NCBI GenBank assembly: GCA_029932075.1 | Contig: JAOZQT010000013.1 | Span: 1-55,899 of the forward strand | DNA from: Anaerolineae bacterium | Lineage (GTDB): Bacteria; Chloroflexota; Anaerolineae; 4572-78 | Reading direction: 5' to 3' | Length of the DNA stretch: 55,899 nt | Shown: positions 4,434 to 28,600 of the stretch, piece by piece | How positions within the stretch are numbered: the first letter of the stretch is position 1 | How the letters are laid out: the number at the start of each line of letters is the position of its first letter | Program-made: the position numbers and the translations under genes | Notes under the pieces: generated by a model | What the model saw: the letters and a program-made list of their open reading frames with translations, nothing else | Told to the model about the DNA's origin: nothing | Database searches by the model: none

Positions 4434-4495
4434 TTTTTCCTCCTATTTATTAACATACCTATTTCATTTCATTTGTGCAAATATTGACATGATTT

Positions 4496-7270: not shown

Positions 7271-7293
7271 TTGTAACCGTTCCCCATTTGATT

Positions 7294-7322
7294 TTGGTGA
7301 TGGAGTGGTTTTGTGGTATAAT
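7294..7322 (+). promoter_or_regulatory. Putative promoter of the vapBC operon
   Basis: TTGGTG (7294-7299), then a 17-nt spacer, then the extended -10 TGgTATAAT (7314-7322), ~37 nt before ATG 7359. Confidence 0.3.
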
Positions 7323-7358
7323 GAATTTATCTATTTTTTGAATTGAGAGGTGGTAATT

Positions 7359-8008: not shown

Positions 8009-8095
8009 ACCCAAATAACAAGGCGTTGCTGGCTAGGATAATTCACTCCACAAAATAATTGCCTAATTAAACAAGCAGGTATATAATTGGCATTG

Positions 8096-11000
8096 ATGTC
8101 AAACTATATTCATAAGCACGATGTTATTTCAATTATTATCCTATTTATCTTGCCGTTGATTTTCTTTTGGCAAGTCACACTTGGCACAAAAACCCTTCTC
8201 CCCGCCGATAATCTTTTCACTTTTGAGCCGTACCATTCGTTTGTAGATGAATTTGGTATTGAGCGGGTTCAAAATCATCTCCTGTCCGATTTAGTTTTAG
8301 AAAATTATGTTTGGAAACGGTTTATTCGAGAATCGATTGCCAAACGGGAATTACCTCTTTGGAATCCATACATCTTTGCTGGACAACCTTTTTTAGCAAA
8401 TGGGCAACATTCTGCCTTATATCCCCTGACGATATTATTCTACATCTTGCCATTAGAAAATGCTTACGGCTGGTTTACTGTTATCCAATTGTGGTTAGCT
8501 GGAGCATTTACTTATTTGTTTTTGCGGGTGCTGAAAGCAAATCGCTGGGGAGCATTACTAGCTGGCATTGTATACCAATTGAGTGGCTGGTTTATTTTCC
8601 GAATTGTTTTTACCATGATGGTAGCGGGTGCAGTGTGGTTGCCCTTCATCCTGGCAATTATCGAAATTATTATTCGCAAACAAGAGGAAAAAGGAGAACA
8701 GTCATACTCTCCAATTCCTTATGTTACTGTCGGTGCTATTGCAGTTGGGATGCAAGTTTTAGCGGGGCATGTCGAAATCACTTACTATATTTTGTTGGTG
8801 AGTGCCTTTTATGCCGCATGCCGTTTATTTTTCATGTGGCGAAAGCAAGTAGGGGTTTATGGTCATAACACCATACGTTTGATGGCATGGTTATGGGTTA
8901 TGATGGTCATAGGTTTAGGATTGGGTGCCATTCAATTAATCCCTTTTTATGAAATCGGTACATCAAATTTTCGTGAAGGGACAACTTCATTGCAACAAGT
9001 TCAAGAATGGGCATTACCCATGCGGCGGATAATTAGTTTTGTCATGCCAAATTTTTTCGGTAGTTCTGCCCATACAGAATACTTTGATTTGGTGAGCAAA
9101 ACATGGCAACCATTTGGACTTAATGCACATGGCGAAATCAATCCGCTTTGCAATTACTGTGCTACATGGGATGTTAAAACGGCAGTTGAGGCAGGAGCAT
9201 ATTTGGGGATTTTGCCCTTGATTTTAGCAGGATTGGCGATTTATACTGGAGTACGGAAATCGCGTTTTCCTGTTTTTATCTTCGGGACACTAGCAATTTT
9301 ATCATTACTTTTTGCATTTGGCACACCGCTTTATGCCCTTTTGTTTTATGGTTTGCCAGGCTGGAATCAACTTCATTCGCCCTTTCGTTGGATTTATCCA
9401 TTTACCTTGAGCATTGCAGTTTTAGCAGGTATTGGTGTAACCAATTTGTGTGCATCCAAAAGGCATGATGCAACAACTTCAAGGTATGTAGGCGGGTTAC
9501 TTTTTTGGAGCGGATTGATTGGCATGCTTGCCATGTTCATTACATTTATATTTCCTACCACACTTATTAACATCGGGCAGTTTGTTGTTGACCATTCGGG
9601 ATTGGCTCAAAATGCTTTTGCTGATGGTCGACAGTTTGCCAGTTATCAATGGCGTAATCTGCTTCATTTTTTCTCGATGGTCATGGCAAGTGGGGCAATT
9701 TTACGTATTAGCCTTGTAAATCCCTCCCCTTCAAAGAGGAGGGGCTGGGGTGGGGTCTGGAAACCGTTGATGTTGCTTATCGTCGTCATGGATTTGATGA
9801 TGTCGAGCATGGGTTTTAATCCTGCCGTTGACCCTACATTGCTCGATTTTACGCCGCCTGCTATCGAATGGCTACAAGCTCAACAAAAAACCGATTCTCT
9901 ATTTCGTATCACGAGCTTCGACACATCGACGGGAAGAGGAAATAAAATTCTCAATGCCAATACAGCCATGCTAAATCAGCTATTTGATGTGCGTGGTTAT
10001 GATAGCATCATTTCCAAACAGTACCTCGAATTTATGTTGCTCATCCAAGAAAATGGTGATTACCTTTATAATCGAATTGCCCCGATTTATCAACCTGGTT
10101 ATCATGCACTCGATTCTGCATTGCTGGATTTGCTAGGGGTGCGATATGTTTTGACTACAGAGACAATTCCAAATGAAAGCTATCGTTTGGTGTATGATGA
10201 GGAAATTAAGATTTATGAAAATATTGATGTCATGCCGCGGGCGTTTGTGGTGACTCAATCGGAGCATGACATCAAAGACATGGCGTTTGCTTTGCGGAGT
10301 CTGAATCCACGTGAGAAGGTTTTGATTCAGGATTTAGGGGGCAGGGGTGATGGTCAAACAAAAAATGTTTTCGAAAACCTTTCTTGTTTTAACAATAAAA
10401 AGGTTTCTATTACGGAGTATACGAATAATGAGGTGATTATTTCGGCTGAAGTGTTTGAGCCGAGTTGGTTGGTTTTAGCTGACAGTTATTTTCCTGGTTG
10501 GAAGGCATACATCAGCATGACCAATTCTGAAGAAGAAACCGAAATCACCATTCATCGAGCAAACGGCAATTTTCGAGCCGTTCATCTTCCCGCTGGGGCA
10601 TGGCAAATTCGTTTTATTTACACCCCGATGAGTTTTAAGTTAGGAATATATGTCAGTTTCCTAGCGGGCATGATACTGATGTTTTTGTTCGGCTATTGGT
10701 CATGGGGTAAACTTTATCGCGAGAGTGAAACGGATAGCCCGATAAAACGGATTGCCAAAAATAGTTTGGTACCAATGGTCATGGCTTTGACGAATCGGCT
10801 GATTGACTTTGCTTTTGCGATGGTGATGTTGCGTATTTTGCAACCCGAAGGGGCAGGAAAATTTGCTTTTGCAGTGGCGTTCATCAGCATGTCAGATATT
10901 ATCACCCGCTATGGTTTAGGTACATTAGTTACGCGGGAGGTTGCCGCTAATCGAACTGAAACTAATAGTTATTTGTCGAATGTAACTTTATTACGGATGT

Positions 11001-12172
11001 ATTTGTGGGTGTTTGCCCTACCATTCATAGGAACGATTTTAGTATTGTATGTCATGTTCGGCGATTTGAGTTTTGATGTGGTGATTACTATTGCTATCTT
11101 TTCAATAGGCATGCTCCTTAGCAATTTTGCAGATGGCTTGACCGCCATTTTTTATGCCCATGAAAAAGCGGAATATCCAGCCGCCATCGCCTCGATTACG
11201 ACCTTAACTCGTGTTGGTGTTGGTTTGTTGGTGCTGTTACTTGGCTGGGGAATTATCGGTTTAGCAGGTGCTTCATTACTGGCAAATTTGGTATCATTCA
11301 TGGTTTTGAGTTATATTTTGATGGTCAAAATTTATCGCCCTTCATTCGATAATGACATATCTCTGCAAAAAGAAATGATGCGAGAAAGTTTGCCTTTAAT
11401 GCTAAATCATCTATTGGCAACCATATTTTTTCGGATTGATGTGTTTATTCTGGCACCGACATGGGGCGACGAATCGGTCGGTTATTACAACGCCGCCTAC
11501 AAATATATTGATGGCATTAACATCATTCCACAATATTTCACCCTAGCCATTTTCCCCTTGATGAGCAAATTCGCCTCCGATTCCCGCGACTCGTTGATAC
11601 GAGCATACAAATTAAGTTTACGTCTGTTGATTATGCTTGCCTTGCCCATCACCATTGGCACGCCATTTGTGGCTCATGAGCTAATTGGATTTTTGGCAGG
11701 TGAGAAATTCATTCCCGATTCGGTGATTGTTTTGCAGATATTAATTTTCTTTTTGCCCTTCAGTTTCATCAATCAAGTAACGCAATATGTCTTAATCGCC
11801 ATCAATCAACAACGCTTTTTAACACGTGCATTTGTAATAGGGGTCGCCTTCAACCTGATAACAAATATTATTTTTATCCCCAAATTTGGCTACCGAGCCG
11901 CCGCAGTCACCACAATTTTATCCGAATGGGTTTTGTTGATTCCATTTTACATGCTGGTCAAAAAACATTTATGCACTCTGCCATGGCTTGACATTGTATG
12001 GCGACCAATTGTGGCAGGTTTGGTGATGGGAGGGATATTGTGGTTTATGGGAGATATAGGATTTGTAATGACGGTAGTGATTGGCGGCAGTGTTTACTTG
12101 CTAGTGCTGACATTGGTGGGCGGTTTGAATCAAGAGGACATGGCGGTGGTATGGCGGCAATTCCCAAAATAA
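8096..12172 (+). CDS. Fusion protein: YfhO-family GT-C membrane glycosyltransferase (N-terminal ~850 aa) plus Wzx/MurJ-type (MOP superfamily) polysaccharide flippase domain (C-terminal ~480 aa)
   Basis: The N-terminal part has the YfhO-like architecture of many TM helices followed by a beta-rich extracytoplasmic domain. The C-terminal part from ~aa 880 (LVPMVMALTNRLIDFAFAMVMLRIL...) looks like 'polysaccharide biosynthesis protein' flippases with 12-14 TM helices. First ATG is at 8096 (TTG at 8087 is an alternative start). No strong RBS. Confidence 0.55.
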   Translation: MSNYIHKHDVISIIILFILPLIFFWQVTLGTKTLLPADNLFTFEPYHSFVDEFGIERVQNHLLSDLVLENYVWKRFIRESIAKRELPLWNPYIFAGQPFLANGQHSALYPLTILFYILPLENAYGWFTVIQLWLAGAFTYLFLRVLKANRWGALLAGIVYQLSGWFIFRIVFTMMVAGAVWLPFILAIIEIIIRKQEEKGEQSYSPIPYVTVGAIAVGMQVLAGHVEITYYILLVSAFYAACRLFFMWRKQVGVYGHNTIRLMAWLWVMMVIGLGLGAIQLIPFYEIGTSNFREGTTSLQQVQEWALPMRRIISFVMPNFFGSSAHTEYFDLVSKTWQPFGLNAHGEINPLCNYCATWDVKTAVEAGAYLGILPLILAGLAIYTGVRKSRFPVFIFGTLAILSLLFAFGTPLYALLFYGLPGWNQLHSPFRWIYPFTLSIAVLAGIGVTNLCASKRHDATTSRYVGGLLFWSGLIGMLAMFITFIFPTTLINIGQFVVDHSGLAQNAFADGRQFASYQWRNLLHFFSMVMASGAILRISLVNPSPSKRRGWGGVWKPLMLLIVVMDLMMSSMGFNPAVDPTLLDFTPPAIEWLQAQQKTDSLFRITSFDTSTGRGNKILNANTAMLNQLFDVRGYDSIISKQYLEFMLLIQENGDYLYNRIAPIYQPGYHALDSALLDLLGVRYVLTTETIPNESYRLVYDEEIKIYENIDVMPRAFVVTQSEHDIKDMAFALRSLNPREKVLIQDLGGRGDGQTKNVFENLSCFNNKKVSITEYTNNEVIISAEVFEPSWLVLADSYFPGWKAYISMTNSEEETEITIHRANGNFRAVHLPAGAWQIRFIYTPMSFKLGIYVSFLAGMILMFLFGYWSWGKLYRESETDSPIKRIAKNSLVPMVMALTNRLIDFAFAMVMLRILQPEGAGKFAFAVAFISMSDIITRYGLGTLVTREVAANRTETNSYLSNVTLLRMYLWVFALPFIGTILVLYVMFGDLSFDVVITIAIFSIGMLLSNFADGLTAIFYAHEKAEYPAAIASITTLTRVGVGLLVLLLGWGIIGLAGASLLANLVSFMVLSYILMVKIYRPSFDNDISLQKEMMRESLPLMLNHLLATIFFRIDVFILAPTWGDESVGYYNAAYKYIDGINIIPQYFTLAIFPLMSKFASDSRDSLIRAYKLSLRLLIMLALPITIGTPFVAHELIGFLAGEKFIPDSVIVLQILIFFLPFSFINQVTQYVLIAINQQRFLTRAFVIGVAFNLITNIIFIPKFGYRAAAVTTILSEWVLLIPFYMLVKKHLCTLPWLDIVWRPIVAGLVMGGILWFMGDIGFVMTVVIGGSVYLLVLTLVGGLNQEDMAVVWRQFPK
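9722..9755. repeat. Family-C GC-rich element (copy C2) embedded in-frame inside the YfhO/flippase CDS
   Basis: CCCTCCCCTTCAAAGAGGAGGGGCTGGGGTGGGG resembles copy C5 (CCTCCCTTTGAAGGGAGGGGTTGGGAATGGG). It encodes NPSPSKRRGWGGVW in a predicted loop right after a TM helix. Confidence 0.5.
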
Positions 12173-16603: not shown

Positions 16604-16848
16604 GACCCCACCCCTAGGGCTGTTCAATGCTAAATAAGATATTGGATTTCGTACCTCAATCTTATCCATGGGGTATTGTTTTTAACAGAATATGTAGAGA
16701 TTTATGGTATAAATCCTACACGATGATAAGACATGTGTCCCATATTCCTACCATGTTCTACCTGAAAAAATAGCATTGAACAGCTCTGAATAGTAAGGGC
16801 GTACGCCCGTACGCCCTTACAACTGGCATTGAACAGCCCTGGTAGGGT
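16604..16848. repeat. Repeat-dense intergenic region of nested small palindromic/dispersed elements (families B and C fragments)
   Basis: GACCCCACCCCTAGGGCTGTTCAATGCTAAAT at 16604-16635. A perfect 12+4+12 palindrome GTAAGGGCGTAC-GCCC-GTACGCCCTTAC at 16793-16820 is flanked by 12-bp direct repeats GCATTGAACAGC (16773-16784 and 16826-16837). The B motif TTAGCATTRAACAGCCCT recurs at 25550 and 45524. Confidence 0.55.
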
Positions 16849-16944
16849 GAACGGTTACGTTCCGTTTTACGGATTGTTTTCCTGAATTTGTTAAAAAATT
16901 GAGATTGATATATAATGGCAATAATTTTGACATAATCAACATGG

Positions 16945-18270
16945 ATGAACAAAAAAATGAAACGATACGAATCATGGGGAAAATACCCCACTGCACATCA
17001 TAAAATTTACCCGCTTCAATGGCGAACCGATAAATTAGACATGGCAACATTTGATAGAACGGTTTTGCCATTCGGACAGGGACGTAGTTATGGCGATAGC
17101 TGTTTGAATGATGGAGGAATCCTGCTCGATACTGAAGGATTAAATCGCCTAATTTCTTTCGACAGAGAAAAAGGTATCTTGCGATGCGAAGCAGGTTTAA
17201 CGCTGGACAAAATTTTGGAATTGATTGTTCCACAAGGTTGGTTTTTTCCTGTAACTCCTGGCACAAAATATGTTTCAGTTGGAGGGTGTATTGCTAATGA
17301 TGTACATGGCAAAACACACCATCGGGAAGGTACGTTTGGGCATCATGTTTCATGCTTTGAGTTGATGCGTTCTAACGGTGAGCGATTGCTATGCTCCCCG
17401 ACCGAAAATGAGGAGTTGTTTAGGGCAACAATTGGCGGACTAGGCTTGACAGGATTAATCACTTGGGCAGAATTAACTCTAAAGCCCATCAAGAGTCCCT
17501 TCATTCGCATGGAAAGCATCAAGTTTGAAAACCTTGATAAATTTTTTGAGGTTTCGGCAGAATCGGATGAAAAATTTGAGGCAACCATGGCTTGGGTAGA
17601 TTGTCTTTCTCAAGGTGAGTCATTGGGACGAGGCATATTCATGGGCGGCAATTTTGCTGAACCTCCCTTTGACAAAACCCCCACTGGTCGCAGTAAAACA
17701 TTATTTACTGTTCCCATAAATGCCCCAAATTTTGCCCTGAACACCTTAACCAGTCGAGCTTTTAATTATTTGTACTACAACAAACAACGAATAAAAATCC
17801 AAAGAAGTTTGCTCTATTATGAACCGTTTTTCTATCCATTAGATATCCTTGACCAATGGAATCGCATCTACGGAAATAGAGGATTTATGCAGTATCAATT
17901 TGTTGTGCCGTATACAGATTATAATGCTATTCGCACCATTTTCCAAAAGATTGCCGAGTCAGGCTTGGGGTCATTTCTGGCAGTGCTAAAAACGTTCGGA
18001 GATATTCCATCGTTGGGCATAATGTCTTTTCCACGTCAGGGAGTCAATTTAGCTCTTGATTTTCCTAATGACGGGACTAAAACATTTAACCTTTTGGAAC
18101 AGCTCGACCAAATTGTTAAGGCAAATAATGGTTTGGTCTATCCTGCTAAAGATGCCCGCATGTCCGCTGATAGCTTTCAGTCATTTTATCCGCAATGGCA
18201 TGAATTTGCCAAATATATTGACCCTAAGTTTTCATCTAGTTTTTGGCGGAGAGTAACAGTAAGCAAGTAG
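16945..18270 (+). CDS. FAD-dependent oxidoreductase, DprE1 homolog (decaprenylphosphoryl-beta-D-ribose 2'-oxidase-like)
   Basis: Long colinear match to M. tuberculosis DprE1, e.g. RSYGDSCLNDGGILLD...VTPGTKYVSVGGCIANDVHGKTHHREGTFGHHV versus RSYGDNAQNGGGLVID...[33 protein letters not shown]. Also QYQFVVPY versus QYQFVIPT. Confidence 0.8.
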   Translation: MNKKMKRYESWGKYPTAHHKIYPLQWRTDKLDMATFDRTVLPFGQGRSYGDSCLNDGGILLDTEGLNRLISFDREKGILRCEAGLTLDKILELIVPQGWFFPVTPGTKYVSVGGCIANDVHGKTHHREGTFGHHVSCFELMRSNGERLLCSPTENEELFRATIGGLGLTGLITWAELTLKPIKSPFIRMESIKFENLDKFFEVSAESDEKFEATMAWVDCLSQGESLGRGIFMGGNFAEPPFDKTPTGRSKTLFTVPINAPNFALNTLTSRAFNYLYYNKQRIKIQRSLLYYEPFFYPLDILDQWNRIYGNRGFMQYQFVVPYTDYNAIRTIFQKIAESGLGSFLAVLKTFGDIPSLGIMSFPRQGVNLALDFPNDGTKTFNLLEQLDQIVKANNGLVYPAKDARMSADSFQSFYPQWHEFAKYIDPKFSSSFWRRVTVSK

Positions 18271-18332
18271 GTTGGGCATTTGCCCGCCTGCTAAACAAAC
18301 AGGATGTCCGTTCTATATGAGGAGATATAACA

Positions 18333-19070
18333 ATGCACAAGATTTTAATTATCGGAGCCACTTCAGCAATTGCACAAGCTACAGCCACATATTTTGCAGC
18401 CGATGGTAACATGTTCTTCTTAGTAGCTCGTAATCAAGACCGATTACAAATAGTAACAGATGACTTGAAAGCACGAGGAGCAAATCAGGTCAGTTTTACG
18501 GCTATGGATGTTAATGAATTTGACCGCCATGAGCCTGTTATCCAAGAAGCTACCGAATCTATGCATGGCTTGAATATGGTGCTAATCGCACATGGCACGT
18601 TAGGTGACCAAAAAGTTGGGGAAAAAGATTATCATGTAGCAGAAGAGGAATTAAAAACAAATCTGTTAAGCACAATATCACTTTGTACAATTTTGGCTAA
18701 TCAGTTTGAATCCCAACGACATGGTACTTTAGCCGTAATCACCTCTGTGGCTGGGGATAGAGGTCGTCAGAGCAATTATATTTATGGTACTGCTCAAGGA
18801 GCAAAAAGCATTTTCTTGCAAGGGCTACGCAACCGTCTAAGCCATGCGGGTGTTCAGGTGCTGACCATCAAGCCAGGTTTCATTGACACGCCCATGACAG
18901 CTCATCTGAAAAAAGGATTGCTTTTTGTTAAACCCGAAGTGGCGGGCAAAGCAATCTATCATGCAATTATCAAAAATAAAGATATTGCTTATGTACCTTC
19001 GTTTTGGTGGTTTATTATGACGGTAATTAAGTTGATACCCGAAGGAATTTTTAAGCGATTACGATTGTGA
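18333..19070 (+). CDS. Short-chain dehydrogenase, DprE2 homolog (decaprenylphosphoryl-2-keto-ribose reductase-like)
   Basis: Colinear match to M. tuberculosis DprE2 over the C-terminal 150 aa, e.g. NYIYGTAQGAKSIFLQGL...VQVLTIKPGFIDTPMTAHLKKG...IPEGIFKRLRL versus NFVYGSTKAGLDGFYLGL...[22 protein letters not shown]...IPRSIFRKLPI. RBS GAGGAGA. It lies 62 bp after the DprE1 homolog. Confidence 0.8.
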   Translation: MHKILIIGATSAIAQATATYFAADGNMFFLVARNQDRLQIVTDDLKARGANQVSFTAMDVNEFDRHEPVIQEATESMHGLNMVLIAHGTLGDQKVGEKDYHVAEEELKTNLLSTISLCTILANQFESQRHGTLAVITSVAGDRGRQSNYIYGTAQGAKSIFLQGLRNRLSHAGVQVLTIKPGFIDTPMTAHLKKGLLFVKPEVAGKAIYHAIIKNKDIAYVPSFWWFIMTVIKLIPEGIFKRLRL

Positions 19071-20079: not shown

Positions 20080-21210
20080 ATGAAAATATTACATATCTAC
20101 AAAGATTACTACCCCATCAAAGGTGGAATTGAAAACATGCTAAAGTGGGTGGCAGAGGCTCAAGCTGAACTGGGGCATGATGTCACCGTGTTAGTTGCAA
20201 GCCTAAATCGTCAAGAACAGATTGACATGCAACAAGGTGTGCGAGTCCATAAAGTTCCCCGTTTGGCAACTGTTGCCTCCACCCCAATTACACCTACATT
20301 ACCATTTGCAATTCGTCGCTATAAGCCTGACATTGCCCATGTGCATAGCCCTTATCCGCCCGGTGAATTGTTCAATTATTTATTTGGCAGGGCAAAATTT
20401 TCGGTGATGACTTATCATTCTGATGTTGTTCGGCAACAAACTCTTTTGAAATTTTATAAGCCATTGTTCAAAAGGGTGCTTAATCGGATTGATGTTATCA
20501 TGCCTACCAGTGCCAACTATATCGAAAGTTCTTCGTTCATTCGCTCTCATAAGCATAAATGTCGGGTTGTGCCATTGGGCATTGATTTGTGTCGATTCGA
20601 TACGCCGCCTTCAGCATTGGCACAAACGCTTAAGGAAATACATGGCTCGCCGTTGGTGTTGTTTGTGGGGCGTTTGCGTTACTATAAAGGAATCGATACC
20701 TTAATTGATGCTATGTCGCATGTCAACAAAGGAAAGGCATTGATTGTTGGTGACGGACCCTTGCGTGCTGAATTAGAGGCACATGTTAATCGTCTTAATT
20801 TAAGTGGTCATGTTCATTTTGCGGGAGATGTGTCTAATGACGATTTGCCTGCTTATTTTCAGGCGGCAGATTGTTTTGTGTTGCCCTCCAATTCACGGGC
20901 GGAAGCCTTTGGCATTGTTTTGCTTGAGGCGATGGCATCAGGTTTGCCATGTATCAGTACTGAATTGGAAACAGGAACTTCATGGGTAGTGCAGGATGGG
21001 ATTACGGGCTTTGTTGTTCCTCCACAAAATTCATCGGAACTTGCTCAAGCAATTAACACCATGCTTGGTGACAATGTCCTTCGTCGAAAAATGGCTCAGG
21101 CAAGTTTAAAACGAGTGCATGCTAATTTTTCAAAAGAAAAAATGGTGAATAATATTATGCAAATTTACGAAGAATTACTGAAAGGAGTTTATTATGCGAA
21201 AAAAAATTAA
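20080..21210 (+). CDS. Glycosyltransferase family 4 (GT-B, 'group 1' glycosyltransferase)
   Basis: N-terminal MKILHIYKDYYPIKGGIENM, and a C-terminal GT1/GT4 core with the E-x7-E-like region (EAFGIVLLEAMASGLPCIST). Confidence 0.85.
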   Translation: MKILHIYKDYYPIKGGIENMLKWVAEAQAELGHDVTVLVASLNRQEQIDMQQGVRVHKVPRLATVASTPITPTLPFAIRRYKPDIAHVHSPYPPGELFNYLFGRAKFSVMTYHSDVVRQQTLLKFYKPLFKRVLNRIDVIMPTSANYIESSSFIRSHKHKCRVVPLGIDLCRFDTPPSALAQTLKEIHGSPLVLFVGRLRYYKGIDTLIDAMSHVNKGKALIVGDGPLRAELEAHVNRLNLSGHVHFAGDVSNDDLPAYFQAADCFVLPSNSRAEAFGIVLLEAMASGLPCISTELETGTSWVVQDGITGFVVPPQNSSELAQAINTMLGDNVLRRKMAQASLKRVHANFSKEKMVNNIMQIYEELLKGVYYAKKN

Positions 21211-21232
21211 CGATAATACAGGAGCAAGTCAA

Positions 21233-22855
21233 ATGAAACAAACTTATGATTTTGATTTTATTGTAATTGGTTCGGGCTTTGGTGGAAGCGTCTCCGCACA
21301 CCGTTTGACGGAGAAAGGCTATAAGGTTGGTGTCATAGAAAAAGGGAAACGATATCGCCCTAAGGATTTCCCGAAAACAAATTGGCACTTGAAAAAATTT
21401 CTCTGGTTTCCACAATTAAGCCTACATGGTTTTTTTCAAATGACTCTATTTAGTCATGTGTGGATTTTGACAGGAGTAGGCGTAGGTGGTGGTTCATTGG
21501 TCTATGCCTGTACTTCGTTACAACCTCCCGATACGATTTGGCATGACCACCGCTGGGCAAAATTAAATGATTGGGTAAATGTGATGCCCACATTTTTCGA
21601 CGAATCTCGACGAATGTTAGGCGTAAAAACTAACACCTATTTCGGCAGGGCTGATAAAATTTTACAAAAAGCTGCCGAAAATATCGGACGGGGAGATACC
21701 TATTATCCTACTGAAGTCGCCGTTTATTTTGGTGAAAATGGAAAAGTTGTTCCTGACCCATATTTTGATGGTGAGGGTCCCGCTCGCACAGGGTGTAAAC
21801 TTTGCGGCGGGTGCATGATTGGCTGTCGGAATGGGGCAAAAAATACATTGGATAGAAATTATCTCTACCTTGCCGAAAAGCATGGAACTAAGATTATTCC
21901 TGAAACGAGAGTGGTTAGTATTAAACCGCTCAATGGCTCAACTGATGGCAGTGATGGCTACGAAATTCATACCGTTAGTTCTACTCGGCTTTTTGGAAAA
22001 GAACGAAAAGTTTATCGTTCACGAGGAGTTGTCTTTTCAGGTGGTGTATTAGGGACAGTCAAATTAATGCTTGACATGAAGGAAAACGGTTCCATGCCAT
22101 ATCTGAGTGACCAAGTGGGTGAGTATGTCCGCACCAATTCTGAATCAATCATCGGGATACAAATGGATGATGAAGGAATTGATGTTACTGATGGCATCGC
22201 CATTGGTTCGGGATTTTATTTGGATGACCATACTCATATTGAAGCGGTGCGTTATCCAAAAGGCTCTGATTCCATATCACTTGTCACGACATTGCTCACA
22301 GGTGGTAAACTTGGGTCTTCACGCATTTTGTCATGGCTGAAGGTGATAGCACTCAATCCGATTAAATTTTTAAGGACACTAATTCCATTTGATTTTGCTA
22401 AAACTAACGTGATGTTGTTAGTCATGCAAACTATTGATAATCATATAAGGATGCGGCTCAAAAAATCATGGTATTCCCCATTTACAAAAACATTAGAGAC
22501 AGTGGGAGCAAACATCCCAACTTATATTCCCCAAGCAAATCAATTTGCTGAAAAAATGGGACATGACTTGAATGGCACCCCCAAAACATCCCTCGCAGAA
22601 ATATTTATGAATGTGCCCACCACAGCTCATATCTTAGGTGGGGCAATCATGGGAGCAAATCCGAATGAGGGTGTCACTGATAATAAGAGTCGTATCTTTA
22701 ATTATAAAAACATGTATGTTTGCGATGGGAGTATGATTGGAGCAAATTTGGGGGTCAATCCAAGTTTAACCATCACTGCCCTAAGCGAATATGTCATGGA
22801 TAATGTTCAATCGGCTGATGAAACCGATTGGAATGAAATAGGACAAACACTTTAA
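21233..22855 (+). CDS. GMC-family FAD-dependent oxidoreductase (cholesterol oxidase-like)
   Basis: Rossmann motif DFIVIGSGFGGSVSAHRLTEKGYKVGVIEKG near the N-terminus, and a GMC C-terminal region (HILGGAIMG). RBS GGAG is 8 nt before ATG 21233. An alternative in-frame ATG at 21194, also with an RBS, would overlap the GT4 stop by 17 nt. Confidence 0.75.
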   Translation: MKQTYDFDFIVIGSGFGGSVSAHRLTEKGYKVGVIEKGKRYRPKDFPKTNWHLKKFLWFPQLSLHGFFQMTLFSHVWILTGVGVGGGSLVYACTSLQPPDTIWHDHRWAKLNDWVNVMPTFFDESRRMLGVKTNTYFGRADKILQKAAENIGRGDTYYPTEVAVYFGENGKVVPDPYFDGEGPARTGCKLCGGCMIGCRNGAKNTLDRNYLYLAEKHGTKIIPETRVVSIKPLNGSTDGSDGYEIHTVSSTRLFGKERKVYRSRGVVFSGGVLGTVKLMLDMKENGSMPYLSDQVGEYVRTNSESIIGIQMDDEGIDVTDGIAIGSGFYLDDHTHIEAVRYPKGSDSISLVTTLLTGGKLGSSRILSWLKVIALNPIKFLRTLIPFDFAKTNVMLLVMQTIDNHIRMRLKKSWYSPFTKTLETVGANIPTYIPQANQFAEKMGHDLNGTPKTSLAEIFMNVPTTAHILGGAIMGANPNEGVTDNKSRIFNYKNMYVCDGSMIGANLGVNPSLTITALSEYVMDNVQSADETDWNEIGQTL

Positions 22856-22865
22856 TCACATAGTC

Positions 22866-22899
22866 AGACAAGAAAGGTTTTTAAAAACCTGTGTTGTCT
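22866..22899. repeat. Family-D palindromic element, copy D4, between the GMC stop and the ALDH RBS
   Basis: AGACAAGAAAGGTTTTTAAAAACCTGTGTTGTCT. Confidence 0.5.
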
Positions 22900-22916
22900 T
22901 TAAGAAAAGGAGAAAA

Positions 22917-24521
22917 ATGACAGATAAAAAAATACTTACCTGCATCAATCCCGCTACAGGGGAAAAATTTGATGAGATAACAATGGCGACAGCCGAAGAT
23001 GTCGCTACCGCATACAAAGACATGCGGCGGGCTAAAACGATATGGCAACAAAAATCGGTACATGAGCGGGTTCGCATCTTACGACAATTTCAATCGGTCA
23101 TGGTCGATGCCCTCGACGAAATTACTTCGGTTATCAACCAGGACTGTGGCAAAAGTCGGCAGGATGCACTTTTAGAAGTTTTCGTTACTCTCGATTTACT
23201 TCGAGAATATTGTAACCATGCCCCGAAATGGTTAGCACGAGAATATGTCCCATCGGGCTTACAATTTTTCAAGCGAGGCTATATTGAACATCGTCCTTAC
23301 GGTGTGGTTTTGATTATAGCTCCATGGAATTATCCTTTTAATTTAGCTTTAGCACCAGTGTTATCAGCCTTATTTGCGGGAAATACGGTTTTGCTCAAAT
23401 CATCAAAAACGACAGCCGCCACAGGTAAATTAATTGAATCGCTATTCAAACGTGTTCCCGAGTTGGAGCCGTTTATTCGGATAGTGCATGGCGATAGTTC
23501 GGTGGGAAGGATGTTAGTGAAGTCTGCCCCTGACCATATTTTTTTAACGGGGTCGGGTGCCACTGCCAGCAAAATTTTGCATGATGCGGCTGATAATTTA
23601 ACTCCTGTAACTTGTGAGCTCGGCGGCAAAGATGCCATGATTGTGCTTGATGATGCCGATGTAGAAAAAGCGGCAAAATGGGGCGTATGGGGAGCATTTT
23701 TCAATGCAGGACAAACTTGCATGTCAGTGGAACGGGTTTATGTACATGCGTCCATTTACGATGAATTTGTCTGGCATGTTGTGGCTGAAACTGAATCCAT
23801 CCAAATGGGCTATCATAAGGAAATGGTCAATTTTTGCCTTATTGGCTCCATGACCACATCTGAACAAGTCGACTTGGTCGAAGAACATTTAGCCGATGCT
23901 GTGGCGAAAGGTGCTAAAATTTTAGCGGGCGGCAGGCGACAAGACAATTTCTTTGAGCCGACGATTTTGGTTGATGTTGACCACACTATGAAGGTCATGC
24001 AAGAAGAGTCATTTGGTCCATTCATACCGATAATGAAAGTGTCTGATGAGGCTGAAGCAATTCGGCTGGCAAATGATAGTATTTATGGATTGAGTGCTAT
24101 CGTGTGGGGCAAAGATATTAAGCGAGCAGAACGAGTTGGGCATTATTTGGAAGCAGGTACTGTTATTATTAATGATGTCCTTGTTCATTTCGGGAATCCA
24201 CTGTTGCCTTTTGGTGGAGTCAAGGAATCAGGAAATGGTCGTTCACATGGTAGAGCGGGCTTACTTGGGTTTACGGAACCACATTCCTACATGATAGGTA
24301 ATCCACCTTATTCATTTGACATTGCTACGATGTTACGTGAACCCGGCCAATATCATGCTAATTCAGCCATTTTACATCTGATTTTCGGTACATCGCCCAA
24401 GCAAAAATTGAGACCAATTTTGAAAGATAAGGAAACTATCAGTAAGGCAGTAAAACTGACCATGCTTGGTACTACACTAGGAATTGGTTTTAAGTGGTTG
24501 TGGCATGTGATGAAAAGGTAA
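22917..24521 (+). CDS. NAD(P)+-dependent aldehyde dehydrogenase family protein with a ~60-aa C-terminal extension
   Basis: ALDH catalytic motifs ELGGKDAMIVLDDADVEKAA and FFNAGQTCMSVERVYVH (catalytic Cys). RBS AAAGGAG. Confidence 0.9.
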   Translation: MTDKKILTCINPATGEKFDEITMATAEDVATAYKDMRRAKTIWQQKSVHERVRILRQFQSVMVDALDEITSVINQDCGKSRQDALLEVFVTLDLLREYCNHAPKWLAREYVPSGLQFFKRGYIEHRPYGVVLIIAPWNYPFNLALAPVLSALFAGNTVLLKSSKTTAATGKLIESLFKRVPELEPFIRIVHGDSSVGRMLVKSAPDHIFLTGSGATASKILHDAADNLTPVTCELGGKDAMIVLDDADVEKAAKWGVWGAFFNAGQTCMSVERVYVHASIYDEFVWHVVAETESIQMGYHKEMVNFCLIGSMTTSEQVDLVEEHLADAVAKGAKILAGGRRQDNFFEPTILVDVDHTMKVMQEESFGPFIPIMKVSDEAEAIRLANDSIYGLSAIVWGKDIKRAERVGHYLEAGTVIINDVLVHFGNPLLPFGGVKESGNGRSHGRAGLLGFTEPHSYMIGNPPYSFDIATMLREPGQYHANSAILHLIFGTSPKQKLRPILKDKETISKAVKLTMLGTTLGIGFKWLWHVMKR

Positions 24522-24536
24522 ATGTGTTGGATGGGT

Positions 24537-24551
24537 AGACCTGTCAGGTCT
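24537..24551. terminator. 15-bp palindrome AGACCTGTCAGGTCT, 16 bp after the ALDH stop (possible terminator or iterated-palindrome copy)
   Basis: Seen in the sequence. No downstream U-run, so terminator function is uncertain. Confidence 0.25.
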
Positions 24552-24618
24552 GAATCCAATATGACTTATGAAAAATTCATAGATTTGTTGAAGGATAAAT
24601 ATAGAAAGGAAAACACAA

Positions 24619-25389
24619 ATGAAATTATCAGGCAAAATTGTAATACTGACAGGTGCCAGTCAAGGAATAGGTAAGGCAGCCGCTTATAAATTTGCTCAAG
24701 CTGGTTGTAAAGTGGCGTTGGTAGCTCGTTCGGCAAAGATGCTGACCGAAATTGTCAAGGATATAGGAGAGAACCATGCTCTAGCTATTCCTGCCGATGT
24801 CAGTCAAAAAGAAGATTGTAAAAAAATTGTTGAAAAAACAATAGAACACTACGGTAAAGTAGATGTGTTGATAAATAATGCTGGAGTGGGGCTTTATCAA
24901 CCAATGGAGTCTGTTTTGTTATCGGATATAAACACGGTAATGAACGTCAATTTTATAGGGGTGATTCAGTTAAGTCAAGCCGTTATTCCAAAGATGAGGA
25001 CACATGGCGGGGGACTGATTATTAATGTTGCCTCTATCATTGGTAAGCGAGGTTTTCCAAACATGGGTATTTACTGTGCTAGTAAAGCCGCCCTAGAACG
25101 AATGACCGAATCATGGCGGGTTGAGCAGGAGAAGGATAATATTCGTTTTAGCATGTGCTATCCTGGTATAACTCAAACTAATTTCCAGAAAAACACGTTG
25201 GGTATACCTCCTACCGACCAATTTAACCAGCTCGCAGGTGTTTCAGCTGAGCGTGTCGCATGGCAGATTGTTCAAACTGCTAGACGTGAATCTCGCGACG
25301 CTTATGTGACGTTATTTGATAAAATGTTTATTTTGGGAACGAAGCATGTTCCTCATTTATTCGATATGATTTTTCGGCGGTATTCGTAG
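24619..25389 (+). CDS. Short-chain dehydrogenase/reductase (SDR) family oxidoreductase
   Basis: TGASQGIGKAAA cofactor motif, NNAG, and a catalytic YxxxK (YCASK). Confidence 0.9.
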   Translation: MKLSGKIVILTGASQGIGKAAAYKFAQAGCKVALVARSAKMLTEIVKDIGENHALAIPADVSQKEDCKKIVEKTIEHYGKVDVLINNAGVGLYQPMESVLLSDINTVMNVNFIGVIQLSQAVIPKMRTHGGGLIINVASIIGKRGFPNMGIYCASKAALERMTESWRVEQEKDNIRFSMCYPGITQTNFQKNTLGIPPTDQFNQLAGVSAERVAWQIVQTARRESRDAYVTLFDKMFILGTKHVPHLFDMIFRRYS

Positions 25390-25446: not shown

Positions 25447-25617
25447 TGTTCAAAGCTTGCTTTGACATGAAAAAGCAAGCTTTTTCGCTCCATTGTGCGA
25501 CCACATGGTTGAAAATCATGTCGAAAAATATCCCAAGCCATGTTTTTTATTTAGCATTAAACAGCCCTACCACCTCTAACCCCTCCCTACATGGAGAGGG
25601 ATTAGGGGGCGTGGAGG
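25447..25617. repeat. Composite repeat block: family-A palindrome (copy A2, 5' end truncated), family-B motif, and family-C GC-rich palindrome (C3)
   Basis: 25447-25491 matches the A consensus. The shared flank AAATATCCCAAGCCATGTTTTTTATTTAGCATTAAACAGCCCT is as at 45497-45545. 25565-25617 is CCTACCACCTCTAACCCCTCCCTACATGGAGAGGGATTAGGGGGCGTGGAGG. The block lies between convergent genes. Confidence 0.6.
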
Positions 25618-25636: not shown

Positions 25637-28600
25637 TTACTTCAAAATAATCGGCAAGTAAATATTTACTTCTGTGGATTTGCTCATCAAGGCAAATTCG
25701 CTCAGATGACATATCGGTGCTGTCAATTTATTATTGTCAGGGTCACGCACATAATCATCATTACATGCTTCAATGACCTCTTGCCACTGACTGTTATCTT
25801 CATCCCAATAGTACAAACCAAGCGTACTTTTATCAGTAATACCTGCTTCGTCTAAATCAGCATCACTATACTCAATGGTGATGTTGATTGGAGCCTCAAG
25901 TGATTGAGAAGCTGTCAATTGGAATGCATGTCCCGCAAAAGCAAAACCTGAAGTCCCGGCATCGGGCTCATTAGTTTGAGTATAAACAAAGGTAGTATCT
26001 TCACTTACTACATCTGCTCCCACATTAATTGTGGTTTCGAGATTATTCGTATCAGTGAAGGTTTGACTGCCCCCGCCAGGCTCAATAACAAATTCATTGG
26101 CAGGTGGTGGTTGTTCACTGCTAATAACAATAGCATGGGTCTTCGTTACTACTCCAAAACCATTATCCGCTGCAATTGTGATTATTTTCGTACCTACTGT
26201 ATTCCAAACCACGTTGGAAAGTTTGGCATCACGGGTGTTTAAGCTACCTGATAATGGTTCATCTTTGTCGGTTCGCTTAAATGTAAAGGTAATGGGTAAG
26301 GTAACGTTGGTCGGGTCAACTGTTGCCGTAAAGGTGTATGCTGTTCCAACTTGTCCCGTTGTGGGTCCGTTTATAGTTATGCTTGTAGGAGCCACATCTT
26401 GAGCAGTTTCTGCACTAATCAAATTGACTTTTGTACGACTCCCTAAACCTTGCCATGTAATATCCTCACCTGTCGTTAAATCAATCGGGCTGAAATCGGG
26501 GGGCAAAAACGCCTTAAAGGTAAGCGTATCTCCCGTCGTGGATCCTTCATCTGCTGTTGTTGTCGAATCATCGCCATAAGCATGCAAGAATCCATATTTA
26601 CCTGATTCGGTTAGGATAATATCACCGCTGTAATTTCCTTCAGAGTCATAAGTAGCGATAATCGAGCCAATCGGAGCCGCTTGGTCATTGATAGTCAATG
26701 TACCATAAAAATCTGCCCAAATATTAGTAATCTCAAATGGCATGGTGCTACTCAAATCTACCTTTTTGACAACCCCCCGTCCATCCCATGTAGAGTCGCC
26801 ACTCGTTATTTCAGCAGGGCGACCGTAGATGGTAAAACTGATATTGTCGCCAATTTCTGCACCTTCGTCAGTTGATGTACGGGCATCATCGCCATAGACA
26901 TGTAGAAGACCATATTCGCCCCCAAATGTGCCATGCGTGCTAAATGAACCAGCAACAATACCATCAGAGTCATAAGCAATTATTGTGGCATTACTTGGAA
27001 CAAGGTAACCACTGAATTTGGCGATGCCATGAAAATCAGCCCATTCAGTGGTAGGCATAAAAAAATCATTAGTTGCCAGCTTTTGAATTTGCATTGCCTG
27101 TGTTTCATGACGTTTTACCAAAGCAGTACTGTCATAAATCAGGGTAGCTGATTCATCCATTTTAATCCAATAACCAAAGCCAGGCTTCATTGTTTGCAAG
27201 TCACTTAAATCAGCATTATTTGGGTCATAAGTTAAACCACCATTTTCAAACCCTTGCACTAAAGTATATTTACCACTGATACTTTGTAAAGCAGTGCTGA
27301 CTGCCATTTCATCTTCAGGTAAAAAACTAACTAAGTTCCAACCTTCGTTCAAAATGATTTCGGTACTTGCTGGAACACTGACACCTTCAAAGCGTAAGAT
27401 TTGAGTAGTGTCAGCTGTGATATAAATCCAATAACCATCACGATTGTCAATCATGGTCAAGTCGCTGGCATCGGGATTAGCAGGGTCATAGGTCAACCCG
27501 CCGCCTGTCATGCCTGATGTGTATCCGAGAACCACATCATATTTGCCTTCAATGCTTTGCAACACATCGACAATAGCTAAACTCGGCGGCTCGATATTGA
27601 GAGAAAAGAGATTCCAGCCTGGTGTTAAGTTTAGTTTTAAGGGATGATATAGCTTTGATAGCGGGGTCGATGTTCCCACCAGATAACCTTCGATAGTATT
27701 TGTATCGGCTGTGGTACTACCCGTACGGATGCCTTGCCCATCAACTAGGGGAGTCGGGATGGTAGCAGTAAAATCACCATTTGCTGTAGCAGTAACGACA
27801 GCTACAAGTTGCAAAGCTTCTTGATGAGCGTCATCGTCATCAAGGAAAAGTTCAATGATACAATTGGGACATGGGCTGTTTTTGCCGTATGTGCCGACAA
27901 CTGTTGTGCCAGTAATGGCTGTAATCCTAGCAGGATTGAAATTTTTTAAAGGGTCACTATTTGAAATAGCAGGTCCTAAGCCAATCATATTTTCAAGTTC
28001 TGTTTCGGCAAGATTGCCTCGGATGGTGATTTGGTCAAACAACGGTGAACTATCGTTGACGAAAATTGCAGCATTACCTGAGCCGCTAGTAACAAGTGTG
28101 CCTTTGCTATTATAAATTTCATTATCTAGGATTTTAGTGCTATAGCCTGCAACTTGGATTCCCAAACCACATGTACCAATTTTATTGCCAGCAACATCTT
28201 TACCGATAATGTTATTAGCAATAAGATGATTGCTACCTAAAATGGTAATTGCTGGAGGGTGGGTTTCGGTAGGGCTTTGTGGACGATGTAATCCCGCAAT
28301 GATATTGTTAGTAATGGTGATATACGAACCATTGAGAATATCAATGCCCCAGCCACCATACCAATATTCACTCGGATTGGGGGTCGAGTCAGCAAAACAA
28401 TGAATACTAGTGTCATTGAAATTGTCGGGGACAGTACCATCAGCCCGCATGCCAACTTGGTTATTGTCAACAAGGTTATTATTCCCTTGCAAACGAATAG
28501 CGGACGGATTACCACCAGCAATGATATTATTGCGAACGGTATTTCCATCTGATAAAGCATGAATACCACCACCTGCAATGTTATTGCTATCAATGAACAC

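Follow-up and report, generated by a model that had tools for sequence, protein, structure and literature searches.

A DprE1/DprE2-type gene pair in an Anaerolineae genome, a probable epimerase of lipid-linked pentofuranose donor synthesis

Two adjacent genes of an Anaerolineae bacterium encode a DprE1-type FAD-dependent oxidase and a DprE2-type short-chain dehydrogenase/reductase (SDR), which together probably (at roughly 75%, in our estimate) form the two-component 2'-epimerase of a lipid-linked pentofuranose donor pathway. The conversion predicted for the pair, most likely from polyprenyl-phosphate-ribofuranose to polyprenyl-phosphate-arabinofuranose, follows from the linkage of its orthologs to a synthase gene, an arrangement that matches the published pentofuranose donor pathway. 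The genes lie in a 55.9-kb stretch of DNA (hereafter "the window") from the Chloroflexota MAG 'Anaerolineaceae bacterium 4572_78', whose GC content of ~40% agrees with the non-actinobacterial, AT-rich host anticipated in a preliminary description of this DNA. That description also took the pair to be unusual outside mycobacteria, but it proved less so than expected. DprE1-type relatives with 51-65% identity were found in at least 597 species, and the pair is carried by Chloroflexota, Acidobacteriota, Myxococcota, Bdellovibrionota, Verrucomicrobiota, large sulfur bacteria and others; DprE1/E2 proteins outside Actinobacteria have already been described (PMC11127046; bioRxiv 10.1101/2020.04.19.049825). 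With hundreds of bacterial species carrying it, the pair is an ordinary additional case of a known system that is widespread in bacteria.

Table 1. Features of the window discussed in the text
Feature	Position	Strand	Remarks
PMT_2-type GT-C gene	4496-7270		924 aa; weak Pfam match, 29 bits
YfhO + Polysacc_synt/MatE/MurJ fusion gene	8087-12172		Pfam
Three copies of a 15-17-nt motif (AGGGCTGTTCAATGC and complement)	16616-16840	.	343-nt intergenic region 5' of the pair
Sigma-70-like promoter match TTGTTA-17-TATAAT	16888-16916	+	29 nt 5' of the DprE1-like start; consensus scan, 10/12
DprE1-type FAD-dependent oxidase gene	16945-18270	+	441 aa
DprE2-type SDR gene	18333-19070	+	245 aa
GT4, GMC, ALDH and SDR genes	20080-25389		Pfam

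Family membership and active sites of the two proteins

A Pfam scan of the 441-aa ORF (437 aa from the ATG at 16957 that gene callers take as its start) retrieved the FAD_binding_4 domain (PF01565, 6.5e-21). Its residues 35-436 aligned with positions 35-446 of the 449 in the NCBIfam DprE1 equivalog NF053785 (366.4 bits, 2.7e-109), while the runner-up NCBIfam family reached just 1e-11, about 98 orders of magnitude behind in E-value. The nine best solved-structure sequences were all DprE1 (1e-73 to 2e-70, residues 38-436), and the tenth was a cytokinin oxidase (2e-12). The ORF thus aligns along both parts of the two-domain VAO/PCMH-type flavoprotein architecture of the DprE1 family, an N-terminal FAD_binding_4 domain and a DprE1-type substrate-binding domain. 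The 245-aa protein contains an adh_short domain (4.8e-31, Pfam scan), and its top solved structure was DprE2 in a DprE1-DprE2 complex (21gq_C, 2.8e-29, residues 4-243), followed by a second match at 7e-15. Among NCBIfam families it scored best with PRK07102 (317.8 bits over the full length, passing the cut-off of 267), with the DprE2 equivalog NF053786 second (176.1 bits, 1e-51). PRK07102, an "SDR family oxidoreductase" equivalog, is where NCBI would file this protein; the family name implies no function, and such SDRs are tied here to DprE1-like partners. The earlier proposal of two adjacent, DprE1- and DprE2-like ORFs is thereby borne out by full-length alignments, and the best matches (DprE1 in both NCBIfam and structures for the first ORF, DprE2 in structures for the second) place them in these clades and not in generic families. 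It counts against our interpretation that both proteins fall below the NCBIfam equivalog cut-offs (500 bits for NF053785, 250 bits for NF053786); the former model has evidently been calibrated on sequences from Actinobacteria.

The reference enzymes are Mycobacterium tuberculosis DprE1 (Rv3790) and DprE2 (Rv3791), the decaprenylphosphoryl-beta-D-ribose 2'-epimerase. They share with the window the architecture of an FAD oxidase beside an SDR reductase, and both align with the window proteins along their full length. A HMMER alignment with M. tuberculosis DprE1 (37% identity over 395 aligned residues) showed that Y49, H121, K123, Q316, Q318, K349, N368 and K402 of the window protein correspond to Y60, H132, K134, Q334, Q336, K367, N385 and K418, respectively, so that the lysine singled out in the preliminary description (Lys418) is indeed conserved. 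K402 and most of the other DprE1 active-site residues were invariant in a 16-sequence alignment of the window protein and its 15 closest relatives. The cysteine that had been singled out alongside it, Cys387, is replaced by an alanine (Ala370), which was also invariant in this alignment. Cys387 is the covalent target of benzothiazinones, typical of drug-sensitive mycobacterial enzymes, and is dispensable for catalysis. The substitution therefore predicts insensitivity to benzothiazinones and has no bearing on catalytic membership; a sensitivity test would be negative and uninformative on the identity of the enzyme.

The SDR is 29% identical to M. tuberculosis DprE2 over 239 residues and preserves the family motifs GATSAIA, SVAGDRGRxSNY and KPGFxDTPMTA. 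Ser138 and Tyr151 of the SDR triad are present, whereas the lysine of the YxxxK motif, found as YGxxK in about 45 other partner SDRs and in M. tuberculosis DprE2, is replaced by Gln155, with a lysine (Lys158) at Tyr+7 instead. The missing canonical lysine is a second point against our interpretation. The same exchange of Lys(+4) for Lys(+7) occurs in three other Anaerolineae loci (L029, L033, L042), which argues that the protein with the displaced lysine would be a working variant.

In the mechanism that we propose, the DprE1-type enzyme would oxidise the 2'-hydroxyl of polyprenyl-phosphoryl-beta-D-ribofuranose to a 2'-keto intermediate, which the DprE2-type SDR would reduce on the opposite face, using NAD(P)H and yielding polyprenyl-phosphoryl-beta-D-arabinofuranose.

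Conserved pairing and linkage to a phosphoribosyltransferase

The SDR gene starts 62 nt after the DprE1-type gene and is preceded by a GGAGA ribosome-binding site, and the two probably form a two-gene unit. The sigma-70-like match upstream (Table 1) is a weak candidate for the promoter of this unit; comparable matches are no more numerous in the region than expected from shuffling. The same intergenic region contains a perfect 13-nt hairpin (16793-16820) flanked by copies of the AGGGCTGTTCAATGC motif. The 12-mer core of this motif had six matches with at most one mismatch, against 0.25 expected, and related copies appear in the intergenic regions 25529-25588 and 45502-45561. It is most likely a dispersed intergenic repeat, and less likely a putative operator.

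To place the pair in context we surveyed 80 loci of DprE1-like relatives (51-62% identity), kept from the at least 597 species. In 68 of these 80 loci a DprE2-like SDR adjoins or is fused to the DprE1-like gene, and "Rosetta-stone" fusions of the FAD oxidase and the SDR were found in several lineages (P0004, P0012, P0021, P0059, L057, L058, L084, L087). The adjacency in the window is therefore not due to chance. These observations bear on the simplest alternative, namely that an unrelated FAD-linked oxidase and a generic SDR are chance neighbours without a role in lipid-linked sugar metabolism. Public annotation does call the proteins "FAD-binding oxidoreductase" and "short-chain dehydrogenase", and the sub-threshold equivalog scores fit such a reading as well. 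Against it stand the full-length similarity to DprE1, 60 orders of magnitude over any other solved family, the pairing or fusion kept across loci, and the conserved operon that orthologs form with a phosphoribosyltransferase gene (below), so that on the sequence comparisons this alternative appears effectively refuted.

Outside the Chloroflexota, 42 of the 48 pair loci that had sufficient upstream sequence to be counted contain a gene for a polyprenyl-phosphate phosphoribosyltransferase fused to a HAD phosphatase (HAD::UbiA), located directly 5' and on the same strand in 33 of the 42. These proteins score 618-680 bits with NCBIfam PRK08238; their C-terminal half resembles decaprenyl-phosphate phosphoribosyltransferase (~1e-44) and their N-terminal part HAD-IB. 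The synthase-linked close orthologs are 52-63% identical to the window pair. P0022, which at 63% identity is among the closest homologs, belongs to a complete operon with the synthase, in the order HAD-UbiA, DprE1, DprE2, LPG_synthase_TM, DUF2079 membrane protein and Glycos_transf_4.

The picture in the Chloroflexota, where carriers of the pair with complete genomes include Ktedonobacter racemifer DSM 44963, Ktedonosporobacter rubrisoli, Dictyobacter arantiisoli and Aggregatilinea lenta, is different, with the synthase near the pair in only one of 20 loci (L064). This single case is probably explained by horizontal transfer or erroneous binning; with its synthase as query, a protein search retrieved relatives from Kapabacteria, Ignavibacteria and Acidithiobacillus and none from Chloroflexota. 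We found no phosphoribosyltransferase in the window, either by Pfam among ORFs of at least 90 aa or with a custom HMM among six-frame ORFs. Given this absence and the 1/20 count, how Chloroflexota would come by the substrate is unproven, a further point against our interpretation; in the host the synthase would be encoded elsewhere in the genome. In a neighbour-joining tree, stand-alone Chloroflexota sequences and synthase-linked sequences interleave at similar distances, and the window protein clusters with L020, which is among the synthase-linked ones. When the neighbours of 24 loci were clustered in search of partners of the pair in Chloroflexota, the sole conserved context was synteny among Ktedonobacteria; by Pfam, the neighbours in the nearest Anaerolineae loci were unrelated (methyltransferase, TerB, MFS, ABC permease, Na+/H+ antiporter).

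The scarcity of the synthase in Chloroflexota (1/20 loci against 42/48 elsewhere) may alternatively suggest that the pair is a true epimerase acting there on another lipid-linked sugar, made by a GT2-type polyprenyl-phosphate glycosyltransferase from a nucleotide sugar and not from PRPP, with a 2-epimer other than D-arabinofuranose as the product. Two Chloroflexota-type loci (L008, L174) carry a DprE1::DprE2 fusion that is 60-64% identical to the window protein, flanked by genes for a DPM1-like GT2, a DegT aminotransferase and a methyltransferase, with a large PTPS_related or DUF2298 membrane protein nearby and no synthase in reach, and the window protein also groups with L008 in the tree. These two loci count as one observation, because they are close relatives (GT2 73% and DegT 83% identical), and just ~4 of 88 loci have a DPM1-like GT2 in the neighbourhood of the pair. 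Moreover, a protein from a complete synthase-linked operon resembles the window protein just as closely (63%), the DprE1 active-site residues of the window protein are unchanged, and a failure to find a gene within 10 kb is uninformative about the remaining genome. We therefore consider another sugar substrate unlikely. A broader version, in which the Chloroflexota module has become uncoupled from the PRPP-dependent synthase and acts as a general 2-epimerase of lipid-linked sugars for a monoderm cell-wall polymer, here with an SDR that would work with a relocated catalytic lysine, is a slightly longer shot. The substrate in that version would likewise be GT2-supplied, as is hinted at by the clusters of L008 and L174, which combine GT2-DegT-methyltransferase genes, the DprE1::DprE2 fusion and a GT-C-like gene.

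Neighbouring genes and the GT-C question

The preliminary description placed the pair inside a coherent GT-C/flippase locus. Pfam confirmed that the neighbours it listed exist (the GT-C, YfhO::flippase, GT4, GMC, ALDH and SDR genes of Table 1), and a coherent locus would mean that the PMT_2-type GT-C and the YfhO::flippase fusion flip and transfer D-arabinofuranose made by the pair, with the downstream GT4 and oxidoreductase genes serving the same pathway. All these genes fall within ~21 kb, most of them on the + strand. GT-C enzymes and MOP/MATE-type flippases are also the expected partners in three-component pentofuranose systems (PMC11127046), and donor and transferase genes that are unlinked can cooperate, as in Pseudomonas aeruginosa. 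In addition, the 924-aa GT-C and a membrane protein encoded beside the DprE1::DprE2 fusion of L174 are similar in their C-terminal regions (25% identity over 289 aa, 9e-21).

The arrangement of the genes and their associations in other genomes argue otherwise. The closest GT-C gene ends 4.8 kb 5' of the pair, with lon (on the opposite strand) and a gene for an AAA-type ATPase in between; between the GT-C genes themselves lies a PIN toxin-antitoxin pair, and a convergent ZIP transporter gene is found downstream of the DprE1/E2 pair. The GT4, ALDH and SDR genes make up a block of their own with the GMC gene, whose product is cholesterol-oxidase-like. Nor was a conserved association seen from either direction: no homolog of either window GT-C occurred within 10 kb of the DprE1-like gene in the 80 related loci, and none of 80 metagenomic loci with relatives of the 924-aa GT-C contained DprE1-like, DprE2-like or phosphoribosyltransferase genes. 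The relatives of the YfhO::flippase fusion are accompanied by an upstream DPM1-like GT2 in five of five cases (four abutting, one 4.4 kb off), which points to a polyprenyl-phosphate-sugar made by GT2 as the donor of the fusion protein; in none of the five was a DprE1/E2 gene nearby. This GT2 was not found in the window by tblastn. A locus of the kind proposed is thus not supported, and we regard joint action of these genes as improbable, if a shade less so than another sugar substrate.

Other candidate links were pursued without success. In two loci (L090, L093) the YfhO::flippase fusion has an FAD_binding_4/ALO gene at a distance of 9 kb, for which tblastn showed no similarity to the window DprE1/E2 proteins, and searches of solved-structure sequences with both window GT-C proteins gave no match even at E = 1. 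The large membrane proteins beside the pair in other phyla, most of which lack any Pfam family, were rejected as members of the window GT-C families by homology comparison. No flippase or GT-C gene in the host is tied to the pair, which weighs against our interpretation, and we assign neither window GT-C gene as the transferase for its product.

Comparison with known donor pathways and implications

In M. tuberculosis the pair acts in a context of Rv3806c, Rv3807c, Rv3789, Emb and Aft proteins, none of which is encoded in the window, and we know of no arabinogalactan in the Chloroflexota host, unlike in M. tuberculosis. Another parallel, drawn here from its published description only, is the non-actinobacterial pair of P. 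aeruginosa PA7/Pa5196. There, the D-arabinofuranose cluster PsPA7_6245-6251 (DprE1 = 6248, DprE2 = 6249) feeds arabinosylation of pilin by TfpW, with transferase genes unlinked from the donor genes, and the DprE1/DprE2 homologs, ~33% identical to those of M. tuberculosis, were experimentally required for D-arabinofuranose pilin glycosylation (bioRxiv 10.1101/2020.04.19.049825). Divergence of the size seen in the window is therefore compatible with the same function. The P. aeruginosa pair is clustered with genes for a phosphoribosyltransferase, a phosphatase and a GtrA-like protein, whereas the window pair stands alone.

The three-component pentofuranose system of Citrobacter youngae consists of the synthase-phosphatase ORF15, the transporter ORF14 and the GT136 GT-C enzyme ORF12 (Kelly et al. 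2024, PMC11127046). Published examples of such systems are mainly Gram-negative O-antigen systems, and those that contain arabinofuranose have DprE1/E2 homologs (PMC11127046). The architecture of ORF15 is that of the HAD::UbiA protein encoded directly 5' of the close orthologs of the window pair, and near these orthologs there is often a putative flippase (LPG_synthase_TM or GtrA-like) together with unannotated polytopic membrane proteins. In the window and in 19 of the 20 Chloroflexota loci, by contrast, the epimerase module alone is present locally, and no dedicated flippase or GT-C linked to donor genes was found in the window. Should the Anaerolineae host follow this scheme, the lipid-linked D-arabinofuranose would be flipped across the membrane, and a GT-C-fold transferase would then arabinosylate an envelope glycan or protein.

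A literature search combining DprE1, DprE2 or decaprenylphosphoryl with Chloroflexi found no paper. Arabinose has been reported among the whole-cell sugars of several Dictyobacter species (PMC12453558), and the pair is also present in a genome of this genus (L026), which is circumstantial support for a D-arabinofuranose product. That Chloroflexota make D-arabinofuranose wall polymers by a mycobacterial-type route is a tentative proposal that we hold at rather less than even odds; if true, it would account for the reports of arabinose from Ktedonobacteria.

D-arabinofuranose is seldom met in living organisms, and the pathway to its lipid-linked donor has been validated as a target for tuberculosis drugs. 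The generic oxidoreductase and dehydrogenase annotations of the window genes can now be corrected, and an arabinosyltransferase role should not be assumed for the neighbouring GT-C genes. The spread of the epimerase pair extends the range of bacteria in which the pathway is known, and indicates unexplored arabinose-containing envelope glycans in bacteria such as the Ktedonobacteria.

The oxidase and its partner dehydrogenase

ORF1 (DprE1-like FAD oxidase) and ORF2 (DprE2-like SDR) are co-directional and separated by 62 nt, with a GGAGA ribosome-binding site before ORF2, in a window whose GC content is about 40% along its whole length. Exact sequence matches place the window in the metagenome-assembled genome 'Anaerolineaceae bacterium 4572_78' (Chloroflexota). 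In public assemblies, gene callers start ORF1 at 16957, giving a protein of 437 aa. The protein carries a FAD_binding_4 domain (Pfam) and has a full-length match to the NCBIfam DprE1 equivalog (366 bits, 2.7e-109; curated cut-off of 500 not reached), with the runner-up family at only 1e-11. In a sequence search against all solved structures, the top nine matches were all DprE1 (1e-73 to 2e-70), and the first other structure, a cytokinin oxidase, followed at 2e-12.

Aligned with Mycobacterium tuberculosis (Mtb) DprE1 (37% identity across 395 residues), ORF1 has identical residues at Y60, H132, K134, Q334, Q336, K367, N385 and K418. The preliminary description had named Lys418 and a Cys387 equivalent as residues to look for; the lysine is present, and the cysteine position holds alanine (Ala370), which, like K402, is invariant among ORF1 and 15 close relatives. 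Since alanine occupies this position across the whole aligned group, natural insensitivity to benzothiazinones is predicted. The absence of Cys387 is no argument against membership of the DprE1 family.

ORF2 is a classical SDR (Pfam) that passes the cut-off of the NCBIfam equivalog PRK07102 (317.8 bits; cut-off 267), with DprE2 as its second family (176 bits, short of the cut-off of 250). Its top solved-structure match is DprE2 of the DprE1-DprE2 complex (21gq_C; 2.8e-29, 29% identity), and the next lies at 7e-15. The pair therefore misses NCBI's mycobacteria-tuned cut-offs for DprE1 and DprE2; the original identification of the two ORFs as relatives of these enzymes is nevertheless borne out by NCBIfam, the solved-structure matches and the DprE1 catalytic residues.

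The YxxxK triad is not conserved in the SDR. Its motif reads YGTAQGAK (residues 151-158), with Gln155 at the lysine position and a lysine three residues further on (Tyr+7), whereas the canonical YGxxK is kept in Mtb DprE2 and in about 45 partner SDRs of related loci. Three other Anaerolineae loci (L029, L033 and L042) likewise combine loss of the lysine with a gain at Tyr+7. Because the same swap recurs there, the sequences suggest a lysine shifted by about one helical turn in an SDR that tolerates the change and would still be active, rather than a dead enzyme.

The DprE1-like gene is unbroken in the window, as it is in three further assemblies of the same species (L001-L003). A 37.7-kb JGI version of the contig (37,711 nt) records it as pieces of 300 and 128 aa, probably an assembly or gene-calling artefact. 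Upstream of the gene, an intergenic repeat with the core TTTAGCATTRAACAGCCCTA is present in three copies around a perfect 13-nt hairpin; single copies occur in each of two more intergenic regions, which have about 40 nt in common.

Coordinates of the pair, of other window features and of genes in related loci
Feature	Position	Strand	Length	Remarks
PMT_2-type GT-C	4496-7270		924 aa	weak match, 29 bits
PIN toxin-antitoxin pair	7350-8008			between the two GT-C genes
YfhO + Polysacc_synt/MatE/MurJ fusion	8087-12172		1361 aa	
Repeat, three copies	16616-16840			
ORF1, DprE1-like FAD oxidase	16945-18270	+	441 aa	
ORF2, DprE2-like SDR	18333-19070	+	245 aa	OQY49180.1, 'short-chain dehydrogenase'
GT4/GMC/ALDH/SDR block	20080-25389			downstream of the pair
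Repeat, single copy	25529-25588			
ORF without family match	25637-29293	-	1218 aa	
PD-(D/E)XK nuclease-like gene	31551-32186			flanks vault-domain gene
Vault-domain gene	32250-34733		827 aa	annotated hypothetical
Uma2 endonuclease gene	34921-35820			flanks vault-domain gene
Repeat, single copy	45502-45561			
L029 partner SDR	11327-12064			YGTAMGAK, Met at lysine position
L033 partner SDR	11272-12060			YGTAQGAK
L042 partner SDR	3810-4547	-		YASAMAAK, Met at lysine position
L008 fusion locus	6936-12112			
L174 fusion locus	2107-10003			
L174 PTPS_related membrane protein	7262-10003		913 aa	

Distribution of the pair and linkage to a phosphoribose synthase

ORF1 shares 58-65% identity with its closest database homologs, which include proteins from Caldilineae, Aggregatilinea, Ktedonobacteria, Nitrospinota and Gemmatimonadota; in several, the FAD oxidase is fused to the SDR in one polypeptide. 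Scanning one genome per GTDB species revealed relatives in at least 597 species. The best 80 loci (L009-L088; 51-62% identity to ORF1) comprise 24 from Chloroflexota and others from Acidobacteriota, Myxococcota, Bdellovibrionota, Verrucomicrobiota, Omnitrophota, Gemmatimonadota, Kapaibacteria and Gamma-, Alpha- and Betaproteobacteria, including Xanthomonas, Luteibacter, Thioploca and Thiomargarita. ORFs were called in all loci and clustered, and HMMs were built. A DprE2-like SDR is adjacent to or fused with the DprE1-like gene in 68 of these 80.

The commonest other neighbour is a HAD::UbiA protein of about 484 aa, encoded immediately upstream. It matches NCBIfam PRK08238 (618-680 bits), with a HAD-IB phosphatase match in its N-terminal part and a match to decaprenyl-phosphate phosphoribosyltransferase (PRK12324, about 1e-44) in its C-terminal half. 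Citrobacter youngae ORF15 has the same domain architecture; it is a characterised polyprenyl-phosphoribose synthase and 5'-phosphatase that opens a 'three-component' pentofuranose glycosylation pathway, and DprE1/E2 homologs are reported wherever the glycan contains Araf (PMC11127046). A database homolog 63% identical to ORF1 (P0022) lies within a complete operon, in the order HAD-UbiA, DprE1, DprE2, LPG_synthase_TM, DUF2079, UPRTase, Glycos_transf_4, Epimerase_2. In Pseudomonas aeruginosa Pa5196/PA7, D-Araf glycosylation of pilin needs DprE1/DprE2 homologs that share about 33% identity with the mycobacterial enzymes (bioRxiv 10.1101/2020.04.19.049825).

Linkage to the synthase differs strongly between lineages: among those of the best 80 loci with enough upstream sequence, it was found in 42 of 48 outside Chloroflexota (at least 1.6 kb upstream) and in only 1 of 20 within the phylum. 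The exception, L064, probably reflects a transfer or a binning error, since the relatives of its synthase (Kapabacteria, Acidithiobacillus) and the grouping of its DprE1 with Hyphomicrobiales point outside Chloroflexota. No synthase gene was found in the 55,899 nt of the window, nor near the pair in those large sulfur bacteria whose contigs extend far enough upstream (Thiomargarita L023 and Ca. Albibeggiatoa L025; the Thioploca contig, L013, ends too close upstream). The Chloroflexota loci also yielded no other conserved neighbours of the pair, the genes around it being unrelated. In a star-like neighbour-joining tree, stand-alone Chloroflexota and synthase-linked sequences are interleaved, with ORF1 next to synthase-linked L020 and the fusion of L008. 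Taken together, the synthase linkage, the P0022 operon, the P. aeruginosa precedent and the interleaved tree place the window pair, most probably, in an orthologous group acting on PRPP-derived polyprenyl-phosphoryl-ribose; in this organism, a synthase would be encoded elsewhere in the genome.

A minority reading is that in Chloroflexota a GT2 makes the lipid-linked substrate. L008 and L174, two closely related loci of Chloroflexota type, carry a 703-aa DprE1::DprE2 fusion flanked by a divergent DPM1-like GT2, a DegT aminotransferase and a methyltransferase; no phosphoribosyltransferase was found within reach of either. A PTPS_related membrane protein is encoded directly downstream of the L174 fusion, and a DUF2298 membrane protein about 7.5 kb upstream of that in L008. 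However, only about 4 of 88 loci have a DPM1-like GT2 close to the pair.

Glycosyltransferases and other genes of the window

The gene calls for the 924-aa GT-C and the YfhO::flippase fusion were right in the preliminary description, which had also placed the pair with them inside one coherent GT-C/flippase locus. That locus does not hold: it is broken by unrelated genes, with lon (opposite strand) and an AAA_35-type ATPase gene between the GT-C genes and the pair and a convergent ZIP transporter gene after it, and three tests of association were negative. In none of the 80 related loci is there a homolog of either GT-C less than 10 kb from the pair. HMMs detected no DprE1-like, DprE2-like or synthase genes near relatives of the 924-aa GT-C, which number in the thousands, in 80 metagenomic loci (about 0.9 Mb). 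The fusion, a protein of about 1400 aa, occurs throughout Anaerolineae (50-64% identity over its full length in the best 120 matches) and has no DprE1/E2 gene within 10 kb in any of five contexts examined (L089-L093).

In all five of these, a DPM1-like GT2 of about 250 aa is encoded upstream of the fusion, abutting it in four and 4.4 kb off in one. The GT2 and the fusion make up a compact glycosylation system with the classic three-component layout (GT2, flippase and GT-C), of the kind fed by a polyprenyl-P-hexose-type donor. In the window, tblastn found no remnant of this GT2, and the PIN pair and the other GT-C lie upstream of the fusion instead.

A functional link between the pair and the window GT-Cs could still be argued from P. 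aeruginosa, where donor and transferase genes are unlinked (bioRxiv 10.1101/2020.04.19.049825), and from the resemblance of the 924-aa GT-C (residues 634-909) to the C-terminal region of the PTPS_related protein beside the L174 fusion (25% over 289 aa, 9e-21). Beyond this C-terminal similarity we found nothing to support it. The region, which likewise matches a small ORF in L012, may represent an extracytoplasmic repeat or binding domain common to these proteins.

Downstream of the pair, the GT4 gene and a cholesterol-oxidase-like GMC oxidoreductase gene overlap by 17 nt, and ALDH and SDR genes follow on the same strand; the GMC protein scores 779 bits against NF058674 (cut-off 850). This GT4/sterol-oxidase-like block is unusual and looks independent of the pair. 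Elsewhere in the window, the 827-aa protein contains a major-vault-protein shoulder domain (PF11978, 1.8e-26) and a weak Vault_3 repeat, with no sequence match among solved structures, and the 1218-aa ORF had no match in Pfam, NCBIfam or PADLOC.

Predicted role in Chloroflexota

The window pair falls in the clades of Mtb DprE1 and DprE2 and is predicted to work like them. The FAD enzyme would oxidise the 2'-OH of polyprenyl-phosphoryl-beta-D-ribofuranose, and the SDR would convert the 2'-keto intermediate to the arabino epimer, the lipid-linked D-Araf donor. Delivery of D-Araf to an envelope glycan or protein would then fall to a flippase and a GT-C transferase whose genes would lie elsewhere. 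Arabinose (D or L) is listed among the whole-cell sugars of several Dictyobacter species (PMC12453558), and the pair is present in a Dictyobacter genome (L026), which is circumstantial support for arabinose-containing envelopes in Chloroflexota.

The pair fits a view put forward in 2024, in which DprE1/E2 act as auxiliary epimerases in pentofuranose donor pathways of wide occurrence (PMC11127046). We found no paper on these genes in Chloroflexota. The pair adds a new member to a known kind of system, in a phylum where it has had no prior discussion, and is not a system of a new kind. For specialists, the points of interest are the stand-alone pair across Chloroflexota and the relocated lysine of its SDR.
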